Shown: one piece after another, positions 1,898-18,409 of the stretch
How the letters are laid out: the number at the start of each line of letters is the position of its first letter
How positions within the stretch are numbered: position 1 is the stretch's first letter
NCBI GenBank assembly: GCA_964642815.1
Contig: CAZXSA010000086.1
Span: 1-18,409 of the forward strand
Direction: 5' to 3'
Source: an uncultured Planctomycetales bacterium
Lineage (GTDB): Bacteria; Planctomycetota; Phycisphaerae; UBA1845; PWPN01
DNA: 18,409 nt
The notes under the pieces: model-generated
What the model was told of the DNA's origin: nothing
Databases searched by the model: none
Seen by the model: the letters and a program-made list of their open reading frames with translations, nothing else
Made by a program: the position numbers and the translations under genes

Positions 1898-3703
1898 ATG
1901 TGGCAATTAATCCTGAGTATCATTCTGGGAGTCGTGGGGGTAGCGCTGATCGTTCTCGGAGGCAAGTATCGTAAAGGCATCCATCAGATCGTGGATCACA
2001 ACCGCCGGATTAATCCGGTTTTGTATTTTGGATTGCCGCTTGGCGTGGTCTCGATTTTATTAGCGATTGTCCTGATTGTCTCCATTTCTTGCGTTTGGGT
2101 CGGTTCGGATGAGGTTGGCCATTTGACCCGTATTTACCTCGGCAAGTCGATGAAGCCGGGGCAGATTATCGCCTTTGAAGGGGAGAATGGACCGCAGGCT
2201 CGGGTGTTGGCTCCGGGGTTTCACTTTGAGTTCTTCATCCGCTTTACCCATAAGATCGACATGAGGAATCTGATTGAGGTTCAACCCGGCTACTGCGGGA
2301 AGCTATATGCCCGCGACGGTATTCCCCTGCGTGAAGAGCAGATTTTTGCCGACGAATGGCCGGCCGAGCAAATGGGCCAGATGCTTGATGCCACCTATTT
2401 TTTAAGTAATAAAGGCCAGAAAGGGCCGCAGTTGACCGTACTCAAACCGGGCAAGTACCGCCTGAACCTTTATTTGTGGGACGTCAATCCCAACGAGCGA
2501 GTCACCAATATCGAGCAGGGATTCGTCGGGGTGGTTAAATCCAACGCTCAACAGGTCCGGGATCAGAGCAGGACGGTCGATCCTTCACGAATCCCCCAGG
2601 GCACCAATCTGGTCGCCCAGCTTGTCCCCAAGGGCCATCGGGGAATCTGGGAGGAAACCCTGCCGCCTGGTCAGTATTACCTGAATACCGATGCGTTTAA
2701 TGTGACCCCTCTCGACACCAAGGTGCGCACGTGGACGTACGCGGGTGGTTTTACCCGGCGATATATCGATCTAAGCATCGATCAGGAGGGGGGCATTCAA
2801 CAAAAAGAACGAGTGGAGAAATTCGAGGTTCCTAAAAACGCCGTGGACATGGCCATTATCAATAAGATCGAGGGGTGGGAAGTCCCTCTCGATGTTCGCG
2901 TGCTGGTGCAGATCGAACCGCAGTTCGCCCCCTTCGTGGTGGCCTCGGTCGGCGGGATCGAGGAAGTTGAGACGAAGGTTTTGACTCCGACCATCCGAAG
3001 CGTGATTCGCAACGTATGCGGTGAGTTGGGCAAGGCCATGACGACGAGGGCTGACAGCAGTAAGGGCAAGGATGAGAAGATCGAGGAAAGCGTTAACTCG
3101 GTGCTCGACCTGATTGATAAGCGCGCCCAACTCGAGATCAAAGTCAAGGAACGAATCGCGCCGGAATGCCTCAAGGCCGGTTTCACCGTCAAGGAAGTGC
3201 GTTTCGGCGAGCCGGCGATCCCTCCCGAGCTGCTGGTGGCCCGCCTGCGACAGCAATTGGCTCAGCAGTTGAAGGAAACCTACAACCAGGAGCAGCAGGC
3301 CCAGATGCAGCGTATCCAGACCGAGAAGGCCCGGGCCGAGGCCGACCAGCAACCCATGCTGATCAAGGCGGAGATCGAAAAACAGGCGGCCGAGAAACGC
3401 AAGGAAACTCTCCGGCTGGAAGGCGAGGGCGAGAAAAACAAGCTGCTTGAAATCGCCGAGGGACAAAAGGCCCAGGTGGCCGTCCTGGGCGAGGAAAAAG
3501 TGTTGCAACTGGCCATGCTTGAGAAAATCCTCGAGGCGGCCCGGCAAAATCCCGAGATGGTCAAAGTACCTCATGTTCTGGTACAGGGAACCACCGGCGG
3601 TCTCGAGGGGGCGGCCGCCGTTCTGGGTAATAGCACCCTGACAACCGGTCTGCTGCAGAAAACCCTTGAGCCAAAGGGGGAAAACCCGAGGAAACAACCG
3701 TGA
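1898..3703 (+). CDS. SPFH/band-7 (prohibitin/HflKC/flotillin-like) membrane protein with a large internal insertion and a C-terminal coiled-coil
   Basis: Two N-terminal hydrophobic helices. SPFH start pattern 'VGSDEVGHLTRIYLGK...PGFHFEFFIRFTHKIDMRNLIEV'. SPFH end pattern 'AGFTVKEVRFGEPAIPPELLVARLRQQ'. Then an E/A/K/Q-rich coiled coil ('EKARAEADQQ...AEKRKETLRLEGEGEKNKLLEIAEGQKAQ'). AAGGAG RBS 7 nt before the ATG. Confidence 0.6.
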   Translation: MWQLILSIILGVVGVALIVLGGKYRKGIHQIVDHNRRINPVLYFGLPLGVVSILLAIVLIVSISCVWVGSDEVGHLTRIYLGKSMKPGQIIAFEGENGPQARVLAPGFHFEFFIRFTHKIDMRNLIEVQPGYCGKLYARDGIPLREEQIFADEWPAEQMGQMLDATYFLSNKGQKGPQLTVLKPGKYRLNLYLWDVNPNERVTNIEQGFVGVVKSNAQQVRDQSRTVDPSRIPQGTNLVAQLVPKGHRGIWEETLPPGQYYLNTDAFNVTPLDTKVRTWTYAGGFTRRYIDLSIDQEGGIQQKERVEKFEVPKNAVDMAIINKIEGWEVPLDVRVLVQIEPQFAPFVVASVGGIEEVETKVLTPTIRSVIRNVCGELGKAMTTRADSSKGKDEKIEESVNSVLDLIDKRAQLEIKVKERIAPECLKAGFTVKEVRFGEPAIPPELLVARLRQQLAQQLKETYNQEQQAQMQRIQTEKARAEADQQPMLIKAEIEKQAAEKRKETLRLEGEGEKNKLLEIAEGQKAQVAVLGEEKVLQLAMLEKILEAARQNPEMVKVPHVLVQGTTGGLEGAAAVLGNSTLTTGLLQKTLEPKGENPRKQP

Positions 3704-3780: not shown

Positions 3781-5754
3781 ATGAGAGAGCCGGTAACGGT
3801 GTTGCCCATGAATTTCTTTGAAAGTCAGGATGTTGCTCGGAAGCAAACGGGGCGGCTGATTGTTTTATTCGCCCTGGCCGTTCTGGCCATCATGTGCATG
3901 GTCTATCTGGTCGTGGCCGGGGTGATTGTTTATCTCGGCGGACGCGAGTTCACCGCGGGTCGCCTGAATCTTTTTCATCCTCAGTTATTGGCTTATATCG
4001 GACTGGGCACCCTGACCATCGTGGGGCTGGGCAGCGTGTACAAAATCATCGAGCTACGTTCCGGCGGCGGCAAGGCGGTCGCCGAGGCGTTGGGCGGCCG
4101 ACTCGTCCTCTCGAACACCACCGTCCATGCCGAACGTCGATTGCTCAACGTGGTCGAGGAAATGGCAATCGCCTCCGGTACGCCCGTGCCTCCGGTATAT
4201 ATCCTGGAGGAGGATGGTATCAACGCCTTCGCCGCCGGCTATTCGCCGGCCGACGCGGTCGTGGCTGTCACCCGTGGTTGCGTCGAACAACTATCGCGGG
4301 ATGAATTGCAGGGTGTTGTCGCCCACGAGTTCAGTCACGTGTTCAACGGCGACATGCGTCTGAATATCCGCCTCATGGGTCTTTTGCACGGGATCCTCAT
4401 TATTGGAATGATCGGGTATTTTCTTCTGCGCTCGATAGGCAGCTCAACCCGGCATGCGCGGCGTTCCAGCCGTGGTAAAGGGGACGGCGGAATATTACTA
4501 GTTCTGGCCTTGGGAGCCGGACTGATGATCGTTGGTTACACAGGTACCTTTTTCGGTAAATTGATCAAGGCCGCGGTCAGCCGCCAGCGTGAATTTCTCG
4601 CCGATGCATCGGCCGTTCAGTTCACCCGCAATCCATCCGGGATCGCCGGGGCCTTGAAGCGGATCGGTGGATTCTCCCGGGGATCGCGACTGGAACACCC
4701 CAACGCCGAGCAGGCCAGCCACATGTTTTTCAGCCAGGGGTTTGCTACCTGGTTTGGTAACTTTTTCGCCACCCACCCGCCGCTGGCCGAACGAATTCGC
4801 CGGATCGAACCGGACTGGAGCGGAGAATTTGCCAAGGGTGAGCCGGCTCAAGCCAAGCCCGTCAAGCAAGATGCTTACGGGCAGGCGGTCCCGGCGGCTT
4901 TTGTCGGCGAGGCCAAGCCGGTCATCGGCCGTATTGGCCGACCCTCGGAGGCTCATATTCAATATGCCGGCCAGGTACTCAACGATTTGCCGGCACCGCT
5001 TGTTGCCGCGGCCCGCGACCCTTACAGCGTCCGAGCGGTTGTCTACGCTCTCCTGATTAACCGGCAGGCGGACATTCGTAACCATCAGATCGAATGGCTG
5101 GCCCAGTACGCCACCCCGGACGTGTATCAGACGACCTTGAAACTGCTCCCTTTGCTCGAGGGGCTGAAAAACAGCGACCGCCTGCCGCTGATTGATCTGA
5201 CCCTGCCGGCGTTGAAACAAATGTCGTCGGATCAGTACAAGGCGTTCAAGCGCAATTTCCTTGCCCTGGTCGAGGCGGACCGAAAAATCGAGTTGTTCGA
5301 GTGGATGCTGCAACGGCTGGTGCTGCGTAATCTGGAGGCTCATTTCACGCGCGGAGCCGCTCCGCCCCGGGCCATGTATTATGCCTTGCCGCGGCTGCGG
5401 GGCCATCTTGAGATCCTGCTCTCGTCCCTGGCCTATGTGGGGCAAAAAGATATTGAAAAGGCGAGGACTGCTTTTGAGGCCGGATTGGCATTCCTTGAAC
5501 TTACGGACATATCCCTGTGCCCCAAGGACCGCTGTGATCTGAAGGCCCTGGATACGGCCTTGGATGAGCTGGCCCGCTTATCGCCACCGCTCAAACTCAA
5601 GGTGCTCAAGGCCAGCGCGGCCTGTATCAATGCTGATAATCGCATCACCGACGCCGAAGCCGAGTTGTTCCGCGCCGCGGCGGACGCCTTGGGTTGCCCC
5701 GTACCTCCCCTGATCCCTAGCCACCCGGCGCATGGCGTGCGGAACGAGGCATGA
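3781..5754 (+). CDS. M48-family (HtpX-like) zinc metallopeptidase with a long C-terminal extension carrying TerB-like repeats
   Basis: N-terminal TM helices. 'NAFAAG...VAVTRGCVEQLSRDELQGVVAHEFSHVFNGDMRLN' holds the HExxH motif. A downstream 'REFLADASAVQF...THPPLAERIRRI' matches the third-ligand/M48 signature. C-terminal ~300 aa contain TerB-like helices ('..INADNRITDAEAELFRAAADALG'). Confidence 0.8.
   Translation: MREPVTVLPMNFFESQDVARKQTGRLIVLFALAVLAIMCMVYLVVAGVIVYLGGREFTAGRLNLFHPQLLAYIGLGTLTIVGLGSVYKIIELRSGGGKAVAEALGGRLVLSNTTVHAERRLLNVVEEMAIASGTPVPPVYILEEDGINAFAAGYSPADAVVAVTRGCVEQLSRDELQGVVAHEFSHVFNGDMRLNIRLMGLLHGILIIGMIGYFLLRSIGSSTRHARRSSRGKGDGGILLVLALGAGLMIVGYTGTFFGKLIKAAVSRQREFLADASAVQFTRNPSGIAGALKRIGGFSRGSRLEHPNAEQASHMFFSQGFATWFGNFFATHPPLAERIRRIEPDWSGEFAKGEPAQAKPVKQDAYGQAVPAAFVGEAKPVIGRIGRPSEAHIQYAGQVLNDLPAPLVAAARDPYSVRAVVYALLINRQADIRNHQIEWLAQYATPDVYQTTLKLLPLLEGLKNSDRLPLIDLTLPALKQMSSDQYKAFKRNFLALVEADRKIELFEWMLQRLVLRNLEAHFTRGAAPPRAMYYALPRLRGHLEILLSSLAYVGQKDIEKARTAFEAGLAFLELTDISLCPKDRCDLKALDTALDELARLSPPLKLKVLKASAACINADNRITDAEAELFRAAADALGCPVPPLIPSHPAHGVRNEA
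5540..5736 (+). repeat. Direct repeat copy A (3' end of the M48/TerB gene), ~94% identical to 7627-7810
   Basis: 'gaaggccctggatacggccttggatgagctggcccgcttatcgcc...gggttgccccgtacctccc' recurs at 7627-7810 with about 10 substitutions. Confidence 0.85.
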
Positions 5755-5759
5755 AGCAA

Positions 5760-5921
5760 GGGGATCGCATGATCAATGGTCGTGAAATAAAAGAACTGCG
5801 TCGATTTATTTCTACTTATTTCCTTGATTGACAGAGAATTACAAATAGTCTCCAATTATGTGCATCATAAGGCTCATAATTTGCCGATGGTCATAAAGGT
5901 CTATTTGGAAAGGGTTTACAA
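5760..5921 (+). promoter_or_regulatory. AT-rich putative promoter/operator region of the ATPase gene, with repeated TCATAA motifs and an ATTGACAGA direct repeat
   Basis: TCATAA at 5865, 5874 and 5891. ATTGACAGA at 5827-5835 and 5921-5929; the second copy contains the TTG start. The purine-rich stretch 'gaaaggg' ends 6 nt before the TTG. Confidence 0.35.
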
Positions 5922-7331
5922 TTGACAGATAACCATTTGGACACCCTTTTAGCTCCGTATAATCCCTGGTGGAAACTTGATAGCCAATGGGACGACGCCC
6001 TGCCCGATTATCAACGGCCGATTGTGGCCGAGGTGCTCGCCGACCTCCGCGACGTGCCCCAGATCATCTCCATTACTGGCCCCCGGCGAGTGGGCAAGAG
6101 TACCGCCGTCAAGCATGTCATCACCCACTTGATCAGCCGCCAGGCTATCGATCCGCGCCAAATCCTGTATTTCTCGTTTGATGATCCGGAACTGTTCGCG
6201 GATGAAACCCTGCAACGCCGGATTTTCGATCAACTGGTGGAACGCTTCGCGAGCCGCCCGCAACCCATCTATTTTTTTCTGGACGAAATCCAGCGCCTGC
6301 CGCGCTGGGAGCTGTACCTCAAAAAATCATATGACCTGAAACGTCCGATCCACTTTGTGGTCTCCGGCTCGGCCTCATCCCCGATATTTCGCAGCAGCCA
6401 GGAGACGCTCCTCGGCCGCATCAAGGACCGCCACCTGCTGCCTTTCAGCTTTCGCGAATACTGCCAGTATCGACTTCGTGGTCAGCCGGAGTTCGCATGT
6501 ATTCTCGCCGACCACGGCGGCCTCCGGCCGGCTCTGCTGGCCGGTGATGGCGCAGCGGCGGTAGATTGTGCCAATCGTTTACATGAAACCCTACGGCCCT
6601 TTCACCAGCAGATTACTCAGGCGGTGTTCGATTACTGCATGGAGGGCGGTTTCCCCGAGGTGTGGGCTCTCCCCGATCCTGTCCGCAAGATCGAATACCT
6701 CATGGAGCAGCAGGTACGCAAGGTGCTCTATGAGGATCTGATGATGCTGACCCAATACCGCAAGCCGGAAAACGTGCTGCGATTCTTCGTTTATCTGCTG
6801 GCCCACCCGGGCGTGGAAATCAATTCCACCAAGGTCTCTAAAGACATCGACGTGGAGCGGCGGGTGGTCGATGAAAATCTTCCACGCTTGGAATTGACCG
6901 ATCTGCTCCTGCGGCTCCAAAAATTCAGCCATCAGCCGCTGCGCGTGCGTAAAGGCAATATCAAGTGCTATCCTGTCGATCTGGCCTTGCGCAACGCCGT
7001 GTTGAAGACCTGGGGGATGCCCGATGCCGATGCCCTGGGGCTCTATGCGGAAAACTTGGTTATCCGCGAATTGAACGGTTGGCCGGAAAAGATCGAGATC
7101 AGCTACTTCCGCGAAAAAACGCGCGAGGTGGACTTCGTGTTTACCTATGCGGGCGACCGCCATTTGCCCATCGAGGTCAAGTCCCAGCCCCAGGAGGATA
7201 TCCCGCCCGGACTTAAGTATTTCATGAAGCGGTACAAGCTGCCGTTTGGATTGGTCGTCACGCGAGAAAAAACGGTCAGGTTCGAAGAGGTACTCTACCT
7301 GCCTTTGCGCTATTTTCTGCTGGGCGCATAG
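5922..7331 (+). CDS. COG1373-type AAA+ ATPase (AAA_14-like N-domain) with C-terminal DUF4143/PD-(D/E)xK-like nuclease motif
   Basis: Walker A 'ISITGPRRVGKST'. Walker B 'IYFFLDEIQRLP'. C-terminal 'EVDFVFTYAGDRHLPIEVKSQ' fits the D...(D/E)xK pattern. TTG start (5922-5924) with SD-like 'gaaaggg'. No in-frame ATG lies before the Walker A. Confidence 0.75.
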   Translation: MTDNHLDTLLAPYNPWWKLDSQWDDALPDYQRPIVAEVLADLRDVPQIISITGPRRVGKSTAVKHVITHLISRQAIDPRQILYFSFDDPELFADETLQRRIFDQLVERFASRPQPIYFFLDEIQRLPRWELYLKKSYDLKRPIHFVVSGSASSPIFRSSQETLLGRIKDRHLLPFSFREYCQYRLRGQPEFACILADHGGLRPALLAGDGAAAVDCANRLHETLRPFHQQITQAVFDYCMEGGFPEVWALPDPVRKIEYLMEQQVRKVLYEDLMMLTQYRKPENVLRFFVYLLAHPGVEINSTKVSKDIDVERRVVDENLPRLELTDLLLRLQKFSHQPLRVRKGNIKCYPVDLALRNAVLKTWGMPDADALGLYAENLVIRELNGWPEKIEISYFREKTREVDFVFTYAGDRHLPIEVKSQPQEDIPPGLKYFMKRYKLPFGLVVTREKTVRFEEVLYLPLRYFLLGA

Positions 7332-7443
7332 CAGAAGCCAGCTTGGTTCGCCGGTCTGAGCCGAAAAAACTCCGGCAATAACTCTCAACCGCCACAGCCC
7401 TCAGGCCGTGCCCTACCGGTAAGTAACGGGACGCAGTTCTTTT

Positions 7444-7606
7444 AATTGATCGTCAACTCGCCATTTTCGCGGGGCCAGAGTACCATGTGCCGGTCGTTGG
7501 GCATGATGCCGTAGGCGAGAATGCGCATGGGAAAGCGTTCGTGGGTCTGAGCCGGGGACGGTCTCGAAGGCCACATTATCGCCGGCCTTCTCGAAGAGCG
7601 GCAAAT
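7444..7606 (-). pseudogene. Frameshifted, doubly truncated HUH Y1 transposase remnant (IS200/RAYT-like)
   Basis: One minus-strand frame reads '..AQTHERFPMRILAYGIMPNDRHMVLWPRENGELTIN*'. Another reads 'LFEKAGDNVAFETV' just upstream. Together they resemble the RAYT/IS200 core ('..F.dd.D...FL..L.......R.l.AYclMPNH.HLl.....NL') with a frameshift between the two and a degenerate HUH triad. ORF-track ORF 7413..7604 covers part of it. Confidence 0.5.
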
Positions 7607-7625
7607 ATAGCCTTACCCATCTCCC

Positions 7626-7811
7626 ATGAAGGCCCTTGATACGGCCTTGGATGAGCTGGCCCGCTTATCGCCGCCGCTCAAATTCAAGGTGCTCAAGGCC
7701 AGTGCGGCCTGTATCAATGCTGATAATCGCATCACCGACACCGAAGCCGAGTTGTTCCGCGCCGTGGCGGATGCCTTAGGTTGCCCCGTCCCTCCCTTAC
7801 TTCCCGGCTAG
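7626..7811 (+). pseudogene. Orphan duplicate of the TerB-like C-terminus of the M48 peptidase gene (61-codon fragment)
   Basis: Translates to 'MKALDTALDELARLSPPLKFKVLKASAACINADNRITDTEAELFRAVADALGCPVPPLLPG'. This differs at 5 of 61 residues from the last ~60 aa of the 3781..5754 product. No SD. Stands alone. Confidence 0.6.
7627..7810 (+). repeat. Direct repeat copy B (partner of 5540-5736)
   Basis: Aligned by eye to copy A. About 10 mismatches over ~185 bp. Similarity ends after 'cctccc'. Confidence 0.85.
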
Positions 7812-8105
7812 GTTCAAAGCTGAAAAATAATCCGCGCCGACCAAGCGATTGTCCCCACGAAAAATCCCTACAGATGCCCCATTTTTCCTACTGATCGGCA
7901 AATTTTGCACAACTTTATTGGACCTACCAGGAAAGCCGGAAACCTCTACAGGACCAACCTCTACTGGGTCGATAGATAAGTGGGGATTATCGGACAGAAA
8001 ATTGTTCATTGTCGTTTTTTTAGGTCGAACGGGCCATGCAGGAAGCCGATAAGAATCCCGGTTGTTTTGAGAAAATGCGTAAACAGGTCAAACCGGGAAA
8101 AACTG

Positions 8106-9296
8106 ATGATGCCTAATAGAATGAAAAGTATAGATAAAATAATTTGTGCCACAGCTTCCCTGGCAGCCTTGTTTGTGGGTGGCGCTTGTCAGGCTCCACC
8201 GGAGCCTATCGTTGAGCCGGTGGTGGTTCAGGCTCCGCCACCGGAACCGAGCATGAATGTCACCGCCGATGCGCATTTAACCCTGTTCGGTGAGTTGCCG
8301 GAACGAACGCGTATCCCTTTCCGTCCGCAAGCATCCGCGCCAATGGCCCAGCATTCCTTCACCACCGAAGGGGCGGATTTCGACGTGGACCTTTCTCCTG
8401 ACGGAAAATGGATGGTGTATGCCTCCACCCGGAACACCGTGCAGCCGGATATCTATCTCAAGTCGGTTGACGGCCTCGCGGTCACTCAGTTGACCTCGGA
8501 CCCCGCCGCCGATGTCCAACCCTGCTTCAGCCCGGACGGCAAGAGCATCGCCTTCGCCAGTTATCGTTCGGGTAATTGGGATATATGGATGATTGGTTTG
8601 GAGGGGGGGCAGGCGACCCAGGTTACTTTCTCCCCGCATCATGAGATTCATCCTTCTTTCGCTCCCGATGGCCGGCGGTTGGTTTTCTGTATGTTCAACC
8701 AGCGGGCCGAGCAATGGGAAATTTGCACGTTGCAATTGGACCAACCCGGCTCGCAAAAAACGGTCGGGATCGGCCTGTTCCCCAAGTGGTCGCCGGTCGA
8801 GGACAGCATCGTTTATCAGAAGGCGCGGCAACGTGGCGGACGCTGGTTCAGCATCTGGCGCATGGACTTGGTCATGGGCGAGCCGCGTTTCCCGATCGAG
8901 CTGGCGGCCAGCGCCGAGATGGCCCTTATCCAGCCGAGTTGGAGCCCCGACGGGGCTTGGGTCACCTATGGGACGGCCATGCTGGGTAGCCCCGGGCAGC
9001 CACCGGAAGAGACGCTTAGCCCGGTGGCCTCGCGTGGCGACATTTGGATCATGCGAAGCGATGGCACCTCGAATATGTGCTTGACCGACGGGGCCAGTGC
9101 CCATTTTGGGCCGGCCTGGAGTTCCGATAATCGGGTTTATTTTACGAGCCTTCAGGGTGGGGTCGAAAATGTATGGTCCGTCAGACCTTCGTTTCAGGAA
9201 GGGTTGCAAGTGCATCAACCGACGAAGGATAGCGCAGCCCATATACCCAACCGTGGCGTAGGAACTCGAAATGAGCAGGGGGGGCAGGGCGGGTAA
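8106..9296 (+). CDS. PD40/TolB-like beta-propeller (WD40-like) lipoprotein
   Basis: Signal peptide 'MMPNRMKSIDKIICATASLAALFVGGAC'. Repeated PD40-type units ('DLSPDGKWMVYAS', 'PCFSPDGKSIAFAS', 'PSFAPDGRRLVF', 'PSWSPDGAWVTYG', 'PAWSSDNRVYFTS'). ATG-ATG at 8106 after 'ggga'. Confidence 0.8.
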   Translation: MMPNRMKSIDKIICATASLAALFVGGACQAPPEPIVEPVVVQAPPPEPSMNVTADAHLTLFGELPERTRIPFRPQASAPMAQHSFTTEGADFDVDLSPDGKWMVYASTRNTVQPDIYLKSVDGLAVTQLTSDPAADVQPCFSPDGKSIAFASYRSGNWDIWMIGLEGGQATQVTFSPHHEIHPSFAPDGRRLVFCMFNQRAEQWEICTLQLDQPGSQKTVGIGLFPKWSPVEDSIVYQKARQRGGRWFSIWRMDLVMGEPRFPIELAASAEMALIQPSWSPDGAWVTYGTAMLGSPGQPPEETLSPVASRGDIWIMRSDGTSNMCLTDGASAHFGPAWSSDNRVYFTSLQGGVENVWSVRPSFQEGLQVHQPTKDSAAHIPNRGVGTRNEQGGQGG

Positions 9297-9430
9297 ACAA
9301 ATGGAAATCAGGACTTCAGGTTCAAGGTGGTCCTGAAAGTAGACGAAGTTATTTCTGTCGTTCCGTCGCGAAGAACACCGGCGGGGCGATCCCGTGACGG
9401 AAAGAATTCGCCAACGGGCCGAGAAAAGGG

Positions 9431-10186
9431 ATGAGGCGTCGATCAAGGATGATCGGAGCGAAAAGACATATTACCGTTTGCATGACGAGCCTGCTCGTTT
9501 GTGGGTGGTTCGGCTGCTCGCATGGAGACGCGAATAAAGGAGCGCGGGGCGAGTTATATGTAACTCGACCGATCACGATGGCCGTGGCCCCGGCGCTGAA
9601 TCATAGCGGGAGCTCGGCATTCGACGAAATAAAAGTCGCGGACTTGATGGCCAGTGAATTAGGCGACGTCCGCGGGCTCCGGGTCATCGGAGTCAACCGG
9701 GTTCTGGCGGTCTTAGCGGAGCAAGGCGTTGACCAGATTTTATCACCCCAGCATGCCCTGGCCGTCTGCGAAAGACTGGGCGCGGATGTCATCCTGGTCT
9801 TTGCCATCACCGAATACGACCCCTATACGCCGGTCGTGGGCATGGCCGTCCAGTTATACGGCCACCGCTCCAGCGGGCCGATGTTGGATCCCGTGGCCAC
9901 CTCGCGAATGGCCCGGCCCTTCCCGGTCGACCCTGACCGGGAGGCAACTCGACCCTGGGGACAGATGCAACGCACGTTTAATGCCGCCCATGAGGCGGTT
10001 CGGGATGAAGTCGAGGATTACGCAAAGAACCACGGCGCGGACGAGGGGCCGTATCGCTGGCGGAAATATCTGGCCAGCCAGGAACTGTATGTACGGTTCT
10101 GTTGTCATGCCGCGGCCCGGGAGTTGATGGAGCAGTTGGAAGGGAATGGTAGTTCGGCCTTGGCTCAGGCCACCGCCGGTCAATAA
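9431..10186 (+). CDS. Putative lipoprotein with TolB-N/LpoB/CsgG-like alpha/beta domain pattern
   Basis: N-region 'MRRRSRMIGAKRH', then hydrophobic 'ITVCMTSLLVCGWFGCS' ending in a Cys. 'PITMAVAPALNHSG...ELGDVRGLRVIGVNRVLAVLAEQGVDQILSPQ..LGADVILVFAITEY' matches the periodic pattern of those domains. Confidence 0.5.
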   Translation: MRRRSRMIGAKRHITVCMTSLLVCGWFGCSHGDANKGARGELYVTRPITMAVAPALNHSGSSAFDEIKVADLMASELGDVRGLRVIGVNRVLAVLAEQGVDQILSPQHALAVCERLGADVILVFAITEYDPYTPVVGMAVQLYGHRSSGPMLDPVATSRMARPFPVDPDREATRPWGQMQRTFNAAHEAVRDEVEDYAKNHGADEGPYRWRKYLASQELYVRFCCHAAARELMEQLEGNGSSALAQATAGQ

Positions 10187-10195
10187 GGAGTATCA

Positions 10196-10405
10196 GTGAT
10201 GACTTTGCTTCGACAGCTCTCGTTGGTGAAAGGGGAACATCGGTATGTATTCCGTTACCCCGCGGGGCGGGAAGCGGATGTGGTGGCGGCCTTCGCGGAT
10301 TTAGCCGCCGATGTTGACCAGGGCTTCGATTGGTTCGATGCCGCGGTTTTGAGTTATCAGATGGGTCGTCGTCTCGAGATGGACCTCGAGGAAGTTAAAG
10401 CCTGA
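10196..10405 (+). CDS. Small hypothetical protein (69 aa), translationally coupled to the upstream lipoprotein gene
   Basis: Strong 'aaggag' RBS 5-8 nt before GTG(10196)/ATG(10199). Starts 10 bp after the previous stop. No recognisable motif. Confidence 0.45.
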   Translation: MMTLLRQLSLVKGEHRYVFRYPAGREADVVAAFADLAADVDQGFDWFDAAVLSYQMGRRLEMDLEEVKA

Positions 10406-10457
10406 AGGAGCGAAGGATCGGGGAGAAGAACCTGAGGTCTTTCGGTCTCGAGCCAGG

Positions 10458-11510
10458 TTGGAAATGGAAACTTTCGCCGCTGATGCTGGTAGTATTATGA
10501 ACGAGAACAAATTGATCGATGAATTTTTGAATTACCTCCGGTTCGAGCGGCATTTTTCGCCGCACACGGCCAAGTGTTACGCGGCCGACCTGAATCAGTT
10601 CTGCGAATTCATCGCGGAACACGGGGGTTCCGCGGGCGAGTTGCCCGGATCGTCGGGCGGTTTCAGTATGTCCGATGGCGGAGGCACGGCGGTAGCCGTC
10701 GCGCCACCGGCGACGGGCACATCCACGATGGCCGTGGTTTCCCGTGAGATACTGCTGGGCATCGAAACCGAGGACGTGCGCCGCTTCCTGGCGTTCCTGC
10801 GCGATCAGGAATACTCCAAGAGCACCACGGCCCGCAAGCTGGCCACCCTCCGCAGTTTCTTCAAGTTCTGTTTGAAACGCGGCTACGTGCCCAGCAATCC
10901 GCTGTCCCCCATTCGCACTCCCAAGCAGGACAAACGCCTGCCCAAATTCCTCGGCGAGGAAGAGGTGCGCAAACTTCTGGAAACCCCGGAAGTGAATACG
11001 CTACTCGGCGCCCGCGACCGGGCCATGCTCGAAACCATGTATTCCACCGGCGTGCGGGTCAGCGAGCTGGTCGATCTGAACATCGAGGATGTCGATTTTG
11101 TCGGCGAGGCTCTGCATATCCGCGGCAAGGGCAAGAAGGAAAGGGTGACACCGATTTCCCCGACCGCCCTGGCCTGGATCAAGCGGTACATGGAGTTGCG
11201 TCGGGCCGATGCCCGGGCGGCCGCGTTCGATCAGCAGGCCGTCTTTGTCAACAAGCACGGCCAGCGGCTCAGTACCCGCAGCGTACGTCGCAAGCTGGAC
11301 AAGTACCTGGCCATCGCCGGGTTGCCGCCGGATGTTTCGCCGCATACTCTGCGGCATAGTTTCGCCACCCACATGCTCAATCGCGGGGCCGATCTGCGCA
11401 GCGTCCAGGAGTTGCTCGGACACCAGTCGCTCTCGACCACGCAGATTTACACGCACTTGACCACCGAACGAATGAAGCAGGTCTACGATCAGGCCCATCC
11501 GCGAGCCTGA
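10458..11510 (+). CDS. Tyrosine site-specific recombinase, XerC/XerD family, with a low-complexity insertion in the N-terminal domain
   Basis: N-terminal core-binding domain 'LIDEFLNYLRFERHFSPHTAKCYAADLNQF'. Catalytic domain 'ARDRAMLETMYSTGVRVSELVDL...HIRGKGKKER...HTLRHSFATHMLNRGADLRSVQELLGHQSLSTTQIYTHLTTERMKQVYDQAHPRA' carries the R..HxxR..Y residues. The start may instead be Met 10497 ('MNENKLIDEF'). Confidence 0.9.
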   Translation: MEMETFAADAGSIMNENKLIDEFLNYLRFERHFSPHTAKCYAADLNQFCEFIAEHGGSAGELPGSSGGFSMSDGGGTAVAVAPPATGTSTMAVVSREILLGIETEDVRRFLAFLRDQEYSKSTTARKLATLRSFFKFCLKRGYVPSNPLSPIRTPKQDKRLPKFLGEEEVRKLLETPEVNTLLGARDRAMLETMYSTGVRVSELVDLNIEDVDFVGEALHIRGKGKKERVTPISPTALAWIKRYMELRRADARAAAFDQQAVFVNKHGQRLSTRSVRRKLDKYLAIAGLPPDVSPHTLRHSFATHMLNRGADLRSVQELLGHQSLSTTQIYTHLTTERMKQVYDQAHPRA

Positions 11511-12738: not shown

Positions 12739-12832
12739 CGAAACAAAAACAAGGTGAATTTTGCCGCTAACGCCCATTTTTCGCTTTTCCAGCACCTCAT
12801 CGCCAACTGTCTGATACTTCCGCCTTCATGCT

Positions 12833-14203
12833 TTACTGACCAATCGGCTGATCCGATACCCCCAGTGACCAAGGTTCACGATAATGCTTGCTCACCCATT
12901 CGTTGGCTTGAGGATCGTCGATGACTTGCTCTTTTTCGGCGTCCCAGCGTATGGCGCGACCGGTACGCCAGGCGATGTTCATCAGGTGCCCGGGATTGCT
13001 CGAGTAGTGGCCGTCCTCGATGGTGCCGATGCCCTCCCGTTTTTCCATCCTCTGGAATAGATCGCGAAAACGGTCGGCGGTGGCCTTGAGTTGGTTCGGG
13101 CAGCCGTCGCCGCCGTCGGCCAGGGATCGCTCCTCAATGACTTTCTTGCCCTGGCGGGTTTCGGAATAAATTTCGTAACCTTCGCGACTAAGTACCATGG
13201 TACCGTTCGAGCCGTGAAAAGCCTTGCCGTGCTGGCGGTTTTCGATCAGGCGCATGTTCGCGCAACGGCAGGTGTAGGCCATCAGGAACCCCTTCTTCGC
13301 CACCGGCCCCGGACCGTACTCGCAGCAGCCATCGAAGGTGTCCGGCCAGTCCCAGTTGTCGTTCAGCACGAACTTGCGACCCGAAGCGCTGGCCGCGATG
13401 GGGGCGGTCACGCCCATCGCCCAATGCACGATGTCGTAGTGATGCACCGCCCAGTCCAATTGCCAGCCGCCGCCGTAATCAAAGAACCAGTAGTGATTAG
13501 CCAACCGATTCTTGTTGAATTTCACCGCCGGTGACGGTCCAACCCAGAAATCCCAGTCGAGCTCCGGTGGCGGATCGCTGTCCGGCGGGCAGCCCGCTCC
13601 GGGATAGTAATTCTCCACGTCCCAGACATGCACGTAGGAAATATCGCCCAGCCGGCCGGAGCGGACAATCTCCACTGCCTGCTGATACATGGGCCACATT
13701 CTCTGTTGGGTGCCGACCTGAATGATCCGGCCGTATTTCCTGGCCGCGTTGATCGCCGCCCGTCCTTCGTTGATCCGCGTGCCAACGGGTTTTTCGATGT
13801 AAACGTCCTTGCCCGCCCGGCAGGCGTCAATGGCCGGTAACACATGCCAGTGTCCGTTGGTGCAAACGATGACCGCATCGATTGACGGGTCTTCAAGCAT
13901 CTTGCGATAGTCATGATAAGTCCGCGGCTTGCCCTCGCAGACCTTATGTAGCGCCTCCAGCCGACTTTGATGAACGTCACAGATCGACGCCAGTTCCGCT
14001 TCCTTCGCCAACTGCGCGCGGATGATATTCTGCAACTGCATACCCCGCCCGCCGCAGCCGATCATCCCCAGCCGCACCTTGCCATTAACCCCGCTTTTCG
14101 GGGCGGCTACGGCCTGCATCGCCCTGGCTCCGATCAATCCTGCGCCGATGACCGTGGGGGTAACGGTTTCAAGGAATCCGCGTCGTGTAACTTTGTTACT
14201 CAT
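12833..14203 (-). CDS. Tat-exported Gfo/Idh/MocA-family NAD(P)-dependent oxidoreductase
   Basis: Twin-arginine motif 'MSNKVTRRGFLETV'. Rossmann 'VRLGMIGCGGRGMQ'. Typical Gfo/Idh/MocA N-domain and C-terminal domain. GGAGG 8 nt upstream of ATG 14203. The ORF-track start at 14329 is probably spurious. Confidence 0.85.
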   Translation of the reverse strand: MSNKVTRRGFLETVTPTVIGAGLIGARAMQAVAAPKSGVNGKVRLGMIGCGGRGMQLQNIIRAQLAKEAELASICDVHQSRLEALHKVCEGKPRTYHDYRKMLEDPSIDAVIVCTNGHWHVLPAIDACRAGKDVYIEKPVGTRINEGRAAINAARKYGRIIQVGTQQRMWPMYQQAVEIVRSGRLGDISYVHVWDVENYYPGAGCPPDSDPPPELDWDFWVGPSPAVKFNKNRLANHYWFFDYGGGWQLDWAVHHYDIVHWAMGVTAPIAASASGRKFVLNDNWDWPDTFDGCCEYGPGPVAKKGFLMAYTCRCANMRLIENRQHGKAFHGSNGTMVLSREGYEIYSETRQGKKVIEERSLADGGDGCPNQLKATADRFRDLFQRMEKREGIGTIEDGHYSSNPGHLMNIAWRTGRAIRWDAEKEQVIDDPQANEWVSKHYREPWSLGVSDQPIGQ

Positions 14204-14344: not shown

Positions 14345-14680
14345 TTATTCGCGGAGAATCTGTTCCACCTGCTGTTTCAAAACGGGAAGCTTTTCCCGAA
14401 CAACATCCCAGAGTATGGTCGCATCAATGCCAAAATAGGCATGAATTAAAATATCGCGTAAACCAGCGATTTTCTTCCACTCCACTTCGACGTGTCGTTG
14501 CCGGACGGGCAGAGGAACTTTTTTTATGGCTTCGCCCACAATTTCGAGGTTACGAGCTACAGCATCAACCGTTTTCTCGTCCCGTATAAAAGTATCAAAC
14601 GTAATATTTTCGACATAGCGATCAATCTTTTCGATCGCATTAAGAACATCTTCCAGGTAAACGTTATAATCCCGAGGCAT
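14345..14680 (-). CDS. hepT: HepT-family (HEPN, DUF86) toxin of a HepT/MNT toxin-antitoxin pair
   Basis: 'MPRDYNVYLEDVLNAIEKI' N-terminus. Rx4HxY HEPN motif 'RDILIHAY'. 111 aa. Overlaps the upstream MNT gene by 17 nt. Confidence 0.85.
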   Translation of the reverse strand: MPRDYNVYLEDVLNAIEKIDRYVENITFDTFIRDEKTVDAVARNLEIVGEAIKKVPLPVRQRHVEVEWKKIAGLRDILIHAYFGIDATILWDVVREKLPVLKQQVEQILRE

Positions 14681-14963
14681 ATATCGTCTCGCCTAATATG
14701 GCTTCGCGGAGTCGCGGCTTGATGGAGTCGCTGATGACCAGATCAACAGGTCGGTCGAAAAGTCCTTCAAGAAACTCTTTCACTTCCATATAGGAATCGA
14801 AAGATTTACGCTCAAAATCCACTACGAAGTCGAGATCACTATCGTCCAGCGATTCTCCCCGAGCACATGACCCAAACAAACCCAATCGGCGAACTCCCAA
14901 TTGCCTCAGGTCTGTTTGATGGTCTTCCAGGGTTTTCAGAATTTCATCCCGGCCATACGGCAT
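14664..14963 (-). CDS. mntA: MNT-family minimal nucleotidyltransferase antitoxin
   Basis: 'GLFGSCARGESLDDSDLDFVV' is the GSx9-13DxD polymerase-beta NTase motif. 99 aa. GAGGATGA RBS. Confidence 0.85.
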   Translation of the reverse strand: MPYGRDEILKTLEDHQTDLRQLGVRRLGLFGSCARGESLDDSDLDFVVDFERKSFDSYMEVKEFLEGLFDRPVDLVISDSIKPRLREAILGETIYASGL

Positions 14964-16319: not shown

Positions 16320-17057
16320 TCATATAACGCCCTCGAACAGAGCCGTGCCGATACGCACCATGGTTGCCCCCTCCTCGATGGCTACCTCGAAGTCGTTGCT
16401 CATGCCCATGCTCAACTCGCGGAATGCGGGGCCGACCACCTTCTCGTAACGCATATCCTCGAAAACCTCCCGCAAGCGGACAAAATAAGGGCGGGCCTTC
16501 TCGGGATCTTCCATCCACGGAGCCATGGCCATCAAACCGACGACCTTCAAGCCCGGCAGGTTTTCGATCGAACGGGCGAAATGCACCGCCGCCCCGACGG
16601 CGATCCCAAACTTGCTCTTTTCGTTGGCGATATTGACCTCGATCAGCGCGGGAACGATGCGGTTCAATTTCTCGGCTTCGACGCTGATTTCCTCGGCCAG
16701 GCGCAGGCTATCCAGCGAATGGATGGTATGCGCCCAAGGCAGCAGCATCCGCACCTTGTTCCGCTGGAGGTGTCCGATCATGTGCCAATTCGGATCGGGA
16801 GGCGCGTTTTCCGGTTCCAGCTTCCGCCGTCGGGAAAGGTGTTCGCAGATCATCCCGGCCCGTTTGATTAAGGCCTGTACCCGGCTTTCCCCGAAATCGA
16901 ACAAACCACTATCCATGGCACTGCGGATGATATCGACCTCTACCGTTTTGGTAACCGCGATGAGTTTGATATCCTCCAAACGCCGGCCGCTACGCGCGCA
17001 GGCCTGCTGCATTCGGTCCCGCACGCGTTTGAGATTGTCGGTCAGTTTTCTTCGCAT
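16320..17057 (-). CDS. yggS: YggS-family pyridoxal-phosphate homeostasis protein
   Basis: 'LIAVTKTVEVDIIRSAMDSGLFDFGESRVQ' (PLP-binding Lys), 'HMIGHLQRNKV', and ~245 aa length are typical of the YggS/PROSC family. Confidence 0.85.
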   Translation of the reverse strand: MRRKLTDNLKRVRDRMQQACARSGRRLEDIKLIAVTKTVEVDIIRSAMDSGLFDFGESRVQALIKRAGMICEHLSRRRKLEPENAPPDPNWHMIGHLQRNKVRMLLPWAHTIHSLDSLRLAEEISVEAEKLNRIVPALIEVNIANEKSKFGIAVGAAVHFARSIENLPGLKVVGLMAMAPWMEDPEKARPYFVRLREVFEDMRYEKVVGPAFRELSMGMSNDFEVAIEEGATMVRIGTALFEGVI

Positions 17058-18087: not shown

Positions 18088-18409
18088 ATGCAAAGGGTAT
18101 CCAAGGGAAAAAGCCCTTTCTATCCGGGTCAGCCTGTGCCTGTGGAGTTGTTTGTCGGTAGAACCGAACAAATCAATCGTATTATGGAGCGAGGCGTAGG
18201 GCAGGTGGAAAACGGCAAGCCCGTTGCTATCTATATCCAGGGAGAGTATGGCATCGGAAAAAGTTCCATTGCGAGTCTTGTTCAGTTTTTGGCTGAACGT
18301 AAACATGGCCTGCATTCTCTGTATGCCTCTCTCGGGGCTGTGGATAACGTGGACGATCTCGGGGCGGAGATACTGAAAGCGACCTTGAACTCCGGAGCTT
18401 TCGAACCCA
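18088..18409 (+). CDS. 5' part of a P-loop NTPase gene of AAA_16/STAND type, truncated by the window edge
   Basis: AGGAGG RBS 6 nt before ATG 18088. 'FVGRTEQINRIMERGVGQVENGKPVAIYIQGEYGIGKSSIASLV' combines the (L/F)vGRe.E... lead-in with a Walker A motif. Open to the end of the window, which is why it is absent from the ORF track. Lower-GC codon usage than the neighbours. Confidence 0.6.
   Translation, partial: MQRVSKGKSPFYPGQPVPVELFVGRTEQINRIMERGVGQVENGKPVAIYIQGEYGIGKSSIASLVQFLAERKHGLHSLYASLGAVDNVDDLGAEILKATLNSGAFEP

Follow-up and report, generated by a model that had tools for sequence, protein, structure and literature searches.

We analysed an 18,409-nt stretch of DNA from an uncultured Planctomycetales bacterium (contig CAZXSA010000086.1), referred to below as the window, in which the 3′ end of a gene for an M48-family peptidase is present twice. 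The two copies enclose an insert of about 1.9 kb that holds an ATPase gene and two pieces of a broken Y1 transposase gene. The direct repeat and both of its junctions are confirmed. The 181-nt copies are probably the two junctions of an insertion-duplication at the M48 3′ end, in which a ring of DNA recombined with the end of the gene. The features of the region are as follows.

3781–5754, + strand: M48-family peptidase gene, 657 aa (Pfam Peptidase_M48, 9e-27)
5540–5720, + strand: repeat copy A, the 3′ end of the working M48 gene (repeat search, alignment, codon comparison)
5719–5751, − strand: codons 1–11 of a Y1 (RAYT/TIRYT-like) transposase gene, MPRSARHAPGG (minus-strand translation; matches the N-termini of intact homologues)
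5752–5788, − strand: transposase leader, about 36 nt long, separating the start codon from the upstream inverted repeat; homologous to L084:16988-17025
5789–5804: upstream inverted-repeat copy, AAAAGAACTGCGTCGA, inside a local palindrome at 5785–5811
5805–5921: AT-rich spacer upstream of the ATPase gene, about 44% GC (composition)
5922–7331, + strand: AAA_14 + DUF4143 ATPase gene, 469 aa, candidate single-gene defence protein (Pfam; PADLOC PDC-S01)
7428–7444: downstream inverted-repeat copy, GGGACGCAGTTCTTTT, 17 nt, fused straight to transposase codon 74
7445–7625, − strand: codons ~19–74 of the Y1 transposase gene, with a frameshift near 7555 and the HWH motif changed to DRH; the rest deleted
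7627–7807 (open reading frame, ORF, 7626–7811), + strand: repeat copy B, apparently the displaced older M48 3′ end; junction J2 lies at 7626/7627
7812–9296, + strand: apparent original downstream DNA, comprising intergenic sequence of 42–52% GC and a PD40/TolB-like gene (composition, Pfam, comparison with L084)

The duplicated end of the M48 gene

A repeat search of the window identified a direct repeat of 95% identity between 5540–5709 and 7627–7796, the spacing being 2087 nt. No other repeat in the window comes near it in length: the families that follow measure at most 32 nt and have 66–79% identity. Alignment and codon-by-codon comparison extend it in frame to 5540–5720 (copy A) and 7627–7807 (copy B), giving 181 nt per copy. 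There are nine differences in the first 170 nt (94.7% identity) and eight more in the last 12 nt, and outside the 181 nt there is no similarity between the flanks of the two copies on either side. The original prediction, made from the sequence without database searches, had described an imperfect direct repeat duplicating the M48 3′ end and had read it as the scar of an insertion at the gene end, not as a short target-site duplication. The repeat search, the alignment and the codon comparison agree with the description, and the 181-nt in-frame repeat with its two junctions agrees with the reading. Copy A had been placed at 5540–5736, of which the start is correct and the end about 16 nt too far, the repeat stopping at 5720.

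Two Logan contigs from other sequencing runs are 100% identical to the window, L001 over 5623–7667 and L002 over 5623–7364. Together they cross both novel junctions, namely J1 (between copy A and the insert, at about 5709–5718) and J2, and L001 ends at the exact point where 31-mers become common to copies A and B. Because these independent contigs are 100% identical across the junctions, the arrangement is not an assembly chimera.

Copy B forms a 61-codon ORF, whose ATG was made by the junction itself and whose stop comes 10 codons before that of copy A. As predicted, it differs from copy A by five amino acids, besides the start codon (L>F, A>T, A>V, I>L and S>G). The core of the repeat contains six synonymous and three non-synonymous changes, and the whole repeat 10 and five (Nei-Gojobori), so the earlier count of about ten changes, half of them non-synonymous, holds only loosely. 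The ratio of non-synonymous to synonymous substitution rates (dN/dS) between the two copies is about 0.15 overall, and neutral evolution would give so few replacements with a probability of 9e-4.

In copy A, the last 12–13 codons of the M48 gene (..IPSHPAHGVRNEA*) are read from foreign DNA, and this new tail is the antisense reading of the 5′ end of the transposase gene. The likeness of the gene end to TerB is weak (E=0.046, on the orphan copy). The nearest relatives of the M48 protein are two proteins from metagenome-assembled genomes, P0002 (89% identity, at locus L083) and P0003 (78%, at locus L084; Phycisphaerales, Planctomycetota). Other M48 homologues are at most 56% identical, and a scan of genome contigs with the M48 protein gave relatives of at most 53% identity among the matches listed.

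The two nearest orthologues end in ..PPLTKNAS and ..PPLIKNAS respectively, and distant orthologues in ..PPLLPGQxLx. The tail of copy B, PPLLPG*, is the ancestral-type PPLLPGQ.. closed by a CAG>TAG change. L084 also contains partial M48 3′ ends, c2 (12790–12899), c4 (16926–16987) and c3 (18224–18319), and of these c3 retains PPLLPGQVLN*; c3 and copy B both enter the same DNA upstream of PD40. Because of its ancestral-type tail and its continuity with the PD40 upstream DNA, as in c3, copy B appears to be the displaced earlier end of the M48 gene.

Over 170 nt, copy A and the L083 gene share 91% identity, and copy A has no derived amino-acid change at the sites where A and B differ. When the core changes are polarised with L083, copy A has three synonymous and no non-synonymous changes and copy B has three of each. 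In the last four codons, copy A groups with the gene copies of the relatives, and copy B with the L084 orphans c2 and c3. This is the pattern to be expected if copy A is working and copy B is relaxed. The earlier suggestion that one copy is decaying is compatible with these data, all the core replacements being on copy B, although not proven by them: three replacements among six changes are indistinguishable from neutral (P=0.17). We note that c2 shares 87% identity with the window and L083 alleles, compared to 85% with the gene of L084 itself.

The broken transposase gene and its repeat family

On the + strand the insert, from about 5716 to 7626, reads in the order transposase codons 11 to 1, leader, repeat, AT-rich spacer, ATPase gene, repeat, transposase codons 74 to 19. 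The minus-strand start MPRSARHAPGG can be compared with MPRKPRIAPGG and MPRKARNAPGG at the N-termini of intact homologues, and meets a stop on entering the M48 gene in antisense. At the other end, minus strand 7445–7555 translates as PAQTHERFPMRILAYGIMPNDRHMVLWPRENGELTIN*. Everything past transposase codon 74 has been deleted, including the catalytic Tyr region, and the resulting fusion point of transposase to repeat, ..GELT|IN*, is also found at L083:12005 and L084:11995.

Direct Pfam scans of the transposase fragments gave no match, and the NCBIfam model REP_Tyr_transpos matched the remnant only at E=0.057. However, in an exhaustive search of 1.84 billion protein-cluster representatives, the 37-aa transposase piece matched 116 proteins at E<=1e-3, typically with 55–65% identity over residues ~42–74, and all ten of the longer matches that were scanned score above the Pfam Y1_Tnp (PF01797) cut-off. 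When the pieces 5719–5751 and 7625–7445 are joined, they are collinear with residues 1–74 of P0183 at 55% identity (E=2e-22), with a five-residue gap exactly at the split; about seven codons (~21 nt) are absent at the break. Two unrelated breaks within 21 nt of a gene of ~680 nt would occur by chance in about 6% of cases. We therefore regard the two pieces as in all likelihood one gene that was broken once. On these comparisons the homology of the remnant to the Y1/RAYT family appears secure, with an incomplete domain, and the local transposase is predicted to be a dead remnant, its HUH motif decayed and its Tyr region deleted.

The original prediction of a truncated, frameshifted Y1/RAYT remnant on the opposite strand is confirmed indirectly by these homologues, through which the expected match to a Y1/HUH profile is also obtained, the direct match having failed. 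The remnant had been taken as one piece of a mosaic; this holds for the remnant itself, but its 5′ end lies at 5719–5804, and the insert is a circularly permuted unit plus the ATPase gene. Closing 5716–7626 into a ring rebuilds one Y1 gene between its two repeats, with the ATPase gene on the far side, and puts both inverted repeats in the correct relative orientation.

The repeats belong to a family that was found by scanning public metagenome contigs, in which the 19-mer AAAAGARCTGCGTCCCCTT is present in at least 120 loci. Among neighbouring pairs of repeats in these loci, 54 of 76 are head-to-head, and the spacers are mostly 2–50 nt long, with a second group at 700–750 nt. A Y1_Tnp gene is bracketed by an inverted pair of repeats, 700–750 nt apart, in five of the metagenome loci listed. 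A Y1 gene adjoins the repeat in 14 of the 120 motif-selected loci listed, compared to none of 80 control loci (Fisher P=0.001). The Y1 genes linked to the repeat pass the Pfam Y1_Tnp cut-off, and full-length relatives among them score 65–73 bits on the NCBIfam RAYT model, for which the cut-off is 80. In intact metagenome units, the repeat is located 31–64 nt (mostly 31–48 nt) upstream of the ATG, and the reading frame starts MPR(K/R)(P/A)R.APGG.VYHVLNRAVARLPLF. In the window the upstream repeat is 36 nt before the transposase ATG, within this range. The motif is essentially absent from 1.44 Mb of other fetched loci, and in the 18–22 kb read of each of the three related genomes (the window, L083 and L084) repeat copies occur only in this spot. 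At metagenome loci L126 and L199, repeat copies flank single genes beside the transposase unit. The repeats around the ATPase gene thus appear to be members of a widespread, REPIN-like family that flanks Y1 genes.

In the form AAAAGAGCTGCGTCCCCTT(TT), the repeat was seen in at least 120 contigs (L089–L208), where it frequently makes up hairpin-forming doublets. Several of the intact transposase units have TCTTGAC or TCATTGAC after the repeat; these sequences resemble a −35 box. Two other identities for the inverted repeats were considered, as the ends of a small transposon carrying the ATPase gene and as dif/pdif-like Xer sites (they have weak dyad symmetry, and there is a xerC gene nearby); both were dropped because the motif flanks Y1 genes in metagenomes. 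An attC-like fold was also rejected, the folding of a repeat doublet in L084 not being significant (z=-1.8).

The ATPase encoded between the repeats matches Pfam AAA_14 (2.9e-34) and DUF4143 (8.3e-20), as expected from the original prediction, and matches PADLOC PDC-S01 at 9.6e-54 over residues 30–422. This profile match makes it a candidate phage-defence gene. Homologues with 62–76% identity occur in several phyla. In the four homologue contexts examined they are single genes among housekeeping genes and the repeat is not present near any of them, and the idea that the ATPase travels with the repeat elsewhere was therefore dropped. The gene is not present at the locus in L083 or L084. These comparisons support the view that it is accessory passenger cargo. 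Many close homologues are found on contigs of ~2 kb, which hints at flanking repeats or strain-variable DNA. An AT-rich promoter had been proposed between the copies; no + strand sigma-70-like site was found in the AT-rich 5805–5921, and the promoter and terminator scan did not rise above shuffled expectation. There are no Rfam families in 5400–8100.

The spot after the M48 gene in related genomes

DNA comparison shows the window to be collinear with L083 up to 5713. Window 5714–7423 (1710 nt, including the ATPase gene) is then represented by 94 nt at the same place in L083, and window 7424–7478 has matches in both L083 and L084, just past the end of the M48 gene. Collinearity with L084:18224–21914, which contains PD40, a 251-aa gene and XerC, starts at window position 7715, at 84.5% identity. 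L083 has no PD40 gene near M48, and other DNA is found there. In the window the PD40 gene is called as 396 aa from 8106, the longest ORF beginning at 7980.

In L084 the interval between M48 and PD40 holds DUF433/DUF5615 genes, a gene for a 1238-aa Flg_new_2 protein and DUF6941/PemK genes, and all five repeat copies of L084 are in this variable region. A perfect 20-nt inverted repeat pair (17026/18191) surrounds DUF6941-PemK, and a 70-nt direct repeat of 91% identity surrounds the 4-kb Flg_new_2 insert, forming a further insertion-duplication. At c4, M48 sequence is joined via GCCTCG microhomology to the same transposase leader and repeat as in the window, and L084:16905–17045 is a head-to-head doublet whose spacer holds this 62-nt M48 fragment. 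L083 and L084 are 62–86% identical across M48, but identity rises to 82–96% over the last ~80 nt of the gene and the non-coding module that follows it; this jump in identity indicates a recombination breakpoint in the M48 3′ end. As L083 and L084 carry other DNA or genes after M48, the spot appears to be a lineage-specific variable region, and there is evidence from these comparisons that it may be a recurrent exchange point in this lineage. In 80 distant M48 loci, neither a second copy of the gene end nor a PD40 neighbour was found.

The cargo gene had been predicted to be recently acquired. Relative to L083 this holds for the ATPase gene; the scaffold is older or horizontally shared, since parts of it (the transposase truncation, the inverted repeats, and the orphan gene end by PD40) are also present in L083 and/or L084. 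Taken as a whole the first interpretation was largely right, and has been sharpened by the split transposase, the repeat family and the recurrent exchange point.

Some further observations were made in these loci. The variable region of L084 (11900–18330, ~6.4 kb) comprises two toxin-antitoxin-like modules (DUF433/DUF5615, and DUF6941, a 71-aa ORF and PemK) and Flg_new_2, with the three partial M48 ends (c2, c4 and c3) and the five repeat copies lying between them. At L083:12160–12470 the DUF433 gene is apparently frameshifted; compared with L084, it has an additional base close to the start. The L083 DUF5615 gene is cut after six codons by repeat-like sequence (..GAATAAGGGGTGAAACTCTATTAC), beyond which synteny with the window and L084 ends. 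In L229, L230 and L231, where PD40 is 56–67% identical (tblastn), the block of window 7980–11510 is conserved, comprising PD40, the 251-aa gene (which matches no family), a 68-aa ORF and XerC, and no M48 gene or fragment lies upstream; the adjacency of M48 and PD40 is therefore specific to the clade of the window and L084.

Origin of the insert and comparison with known systems

We infer the following steps from the ring onward. A ring with the transposase unit and the ATPase gene would have undergone one recombination with the chromosome, within the last ~180 nt of M48. In the most economical version this was a single homologous crossover of Campbell type, for which the chromosomal gene end paired with a 180-nt M48 fragment already present in the ring's broken transposase gene; the insert between the direct copies does close into the coherent ring that such an event calls for. 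Rings of this kind could arise by recombination between the direct repeats that flank any existing insertion. To produce the first ring, ~183 nt of M48 would have been duplicated, and ~21 nt of the transposase gene lost, in an illegitimate or template-switch event, so that an illegitimate step would be needed at least once, after which homologous crossover could spread the structure. Alternatively, an illegitimate or template-switch event might itself have made the M48 duplication during insertion of the ring; a homologous crossover or an illegitimate event may either of them have made the insertion. The peptidase would have stayed intact and gained a 12–13-codon tail from the antisense of the transposase 5′ end, with the old gene end, copy B, stranded before PD40 and decaying. 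The transposase would have had no catalytic part in the event, because neither junction is at a repeat edge. Recombination between A and B could still remove the whole block.

Homologous recombination is a plausible agent at this locus. Between window 3781–5754 and L083:10001–11923 the synonymous substitution rate (dS) is mosaic, at 0.17–0.45 in some 60-codon windows and ~1–1.3 in others, which indicates repeated homologous recombination between related lineages. We count this mosaic (0.17–1.3), the breakpoint between L083 and L084 and the insertion-duplication in L084 in favour of homologous exchange here. We also looked for a recombination breakpoint upstream of the repeat; the mosaic in identity and dS between the window and L083 runs along the whole gene and is not diagnostic for this event.

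Several observations weigh against the insertion of a ring by recombination at the gene end. No circular form was observed, the ends of the Logan contigs being fully explained by the integrated form. The comparison covers only three genomes of the lineage, and the empty site that the original prediction had suggested seeking in relatives, with M48 followed directly by PD40, was found in none of the genomes examined. J1 contains 4–10 nt of unexplained filler, and neither J1 nor J2 has clear microhomology. The same truncation of the transposase is found to the right of the ATPase gene in the window but directly after M48 in L083 and L084, and the history must therefore have more steps than one event. 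Copies A and B are 93–95% identical, compared to 81% between B and its positional orthologue c3 and 82% between A and the L084 gene, so that either gene conversion or a separate, more recent event in the lineage of the window must be assumed. The substitutions cannot separate a copy B core derived from the ring from a native copy B that decayed in place. Finally, every orphan fragment in L084 has a repeat copy 4–13 nt before it, which hints at a process that depends on the repeats.

Nothing in the window requires a new kind of element: it is a new example of known processes, and a fairly ordinary scar. One of the two closest natural parallels is at icd in Escherichia coli, where the gene extends into the element e14 and a C-terminal pseudogene, icdC, lies at the far end (PMC13626634). 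Recombination between the two copies can give a hybrid gene (PMC13626634; Hill et al. 1989 as cited there). As with e14 and phage 21 at icd, the window has an insert between direct repeats of a gene 3′ end, an intact gene that ends in element sequence, and an old gene end stranded, like icdC, as a C-terminal pseudogene. Unlike e14, which has its own integrase and site-specific excision, the window insert is 1.9 kb long, has neither an integrase nor a fixed crossover core, and has its junctions in the transposase ORF; in addition, the new gene tail is not a faithful replacement.

The arrangement of cargo and an HUH-family transposase gene between two direct copies of a segment is also like that of the other close parallel, the ISCR1 complex class 1 integrons. 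In the usual model, reportedly that of Toleman and colleagues (2006), a circle with part of the conserved segment integrates by homologous recombination. ISCR1 is an intact IS91-like rolling-circle element, and is thought to generate the circle. In contrast, the enzyme in the window is of the Y1 (IS200/RAYT) class, was broken by the event and is inactive. In the ISCR1-linked integrons, the cargo and the HUH-family gene lie between direct, partly truncated copies of the 3′ conserved segment (PMC3575428).

The unit itself resembles REPtrons and TIRtrons, in having a Y1 HUH gene with inverted repeats at fixed distances and repeats that, across metagenomes, are dispersed and form head-to-head doublets. 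Some published TIRYT repeats have the motif GGGGWSAS (PMC3733652), and the repeat of the window family starts with the similar GGGGACGC. The upstream inverted repeat of the window unit is at the characteristic distance, and the downstream repeat is in the correct orientation but fused to codon 74 by the deletion; an intact HUH motif and a catalytic Tyr are lacking. REPtron loci decay, and in some E. coli strains a toxin-antitoxin operon replaces the locus (PMC6006769); similarly, in L083 and L084 the remnant is followed by DUF433/DUF5615. Unlike REPtrons and TIRtrons, the window unit is circularly permuted, split around a duplicated fragment of a host gene, and truncated. It differs from an IS200/IS605 insertion sequence in its broken transposase, the 181-nt duplication and junctions within an ORF, and from an integron cassette array in that the repeat belongs to a Y1-associated family and is not attC; the nearby recombinase scores 139.7 bits on the integron integrase model, for which the cut-off is 265. 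The cargo matches the models of PADLOC PDC-S01 and lies in a spot that holds toxin-antitoxin genes in a relative, but PDC-S01 is itself only a candidate system and homologues of the cargo are found in many ordinary chromosomal contexts.

The likeness to e14 raises the question of a degraded site-specific integrative element, a prophage or island whose attP carried a substitute 3′ end, as in e14 or phage 21 at icd, and whose integrase was later lost. We consider this unlikely. It would account for gene-3′-end repeats, an intact gene and mostly synonymous differences, which are as in e14 (PMC13626634), and for the tandem partial copies in L084, which resemble repeated integration at one att site. 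However, the interval from M48 to PD40 contains no integrase gene and no other phage or island gene in either the window or L084, and there is none in the gene-free gap of 1.3 kb that follows M48 in L083. The sole nearby tyrosine recombinase is a XerC (349.8 bits, against an equivalog cut-off of 335.15), encoded in the block that distant relatives share although they have no M48 fragments. The orphans begin at different points on the left, at alignment columns 52 (window copy B), 117 (c2 and c4) and 150 (c3), with no fixed crossover core. J2 is inside the transposase ORF and the ends of the insert rebuild one gene, neither of which an att model predicts. A phage attP with the M48 end was also sought and rejected, since protein and DNA-pattern searches matched no viral contig with an M48 C-terminal fragment, and 16-mer matches in viral contigs were near chance level. 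An origin by local tandem duplication followed by decay, or as an assembly chimera of two strains, is very improbable indeed: a tandem duplication gives one novel junction, whereas two are present with different conserved DNA after copy B, and both are reproduced at 100% by independent assemblies, even though direct, in-frame repeats and a copy B with a nonsense change and three replacements would suit such an origin. Tandem-duplication and deletion-only histories were worked through by hand, and each needs more steps than insertion of a ring.

A more active part for the Y1 transposase and its repeats, with RAYT/TIRYT cleavage and joining having moved M48 fragments and swapped cargo in a REPIN-like shuffling of cassettes, is doubtful. 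The window junctions are inside transposase coding sequence and not at repeat edges, the local enzyme is dead, and REPtrons are reported not to transpose as units (PMC6006769). What speaks for such a part is that repeats border the cargo both in the window (5789 and 7428) and in L084 (17026/18191), that the L084 orphan fragments follow repeat copies closely, with the doublet at 16905–17045 holding its M48 spacer, and that, in work that PMC6006769 cites, E. coli TnpA(REP) cleaves and rejoins REP DNA; the repeats flanking single genes at L126 and L199, on the other hand, are ordinary REP-like intergenic behaviour. Nor do we give much credence to the uptake of linear DNA from a relative by homology-facilitated illegitimate recombination, with a crossover in or to the left of M48 and an illegitimate J2 at column 52. 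One new junction would then suffice in the recipient, and the mosaic dS of M48 with its 3′-end breakpoint indicates frequent homologous exchange with relatives, but the matching transposase pieces (codons 1–11 and 19–74) would be left as a ~6% coincidence and the origin of J1 would be shifted to an unobserved donor.

Insertion of a ring at the M48 gene end would make this locus a clean natural example of a small accessory gene, here a candidate defence ATPase, becoming fixed beside a conserved gene without an integrase. The event rewrites the C-terminal tail of a host gene and leaves a datable pseudogene. The analysis also brings to light a widespread repeat family that is linked to RAYT/TIRYT-type Y1 genes and was seen in environmental genomes, Planctomycetota-like and others. 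One unit of this kind evidently entered the chromosome as part of a ring and lost its activity in doing so, a point of relevance to the view that such units do not move. Two repeats of 94.7% identity break short-read assemblies, and annotation pipelines would therefore miscall the 61-codon orphan and the split transposase. There is only a slim chance, in our estimation, that the Y1/repeat system and portable M48-end fragments together form a recurrent cassette-exchange platform, in which rings with the repeats as their bounds and an M48 'handle' would be released and re-enter the gene end in different lineages, and defence and toxin-antitoxin cargo would be swapped without an integrase, as a recombinase-free, integron-like array tied to a REPtron. 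If the reading as a recurrent exchange site is true, small defence islets of this clade could usefully be located by way of this site.

Two other features of the window lie outside the insert. A 601-aa SPFH/Band 7 gene (1898–3703) separates purD from M48. L083 has it too (94% aa identity), but it is missing from L084, where purD directly precedes M48, which makes a second presence/absence difference at the locus. At 14345–14963 on the − strand, a gene for a HepT-like RNase (111 aa, Pfam 5e-31) overlaps by 17 nt a gene for an MNT nucleotidyltransferase (99 aa, 4.5e-14), which matches PADLOC PDC-S09 at 4.5e-29; this HepT/MNT toxin-antitoxin pair sits between a GFO/IDH/MocA oxidoreductase gene and carA.

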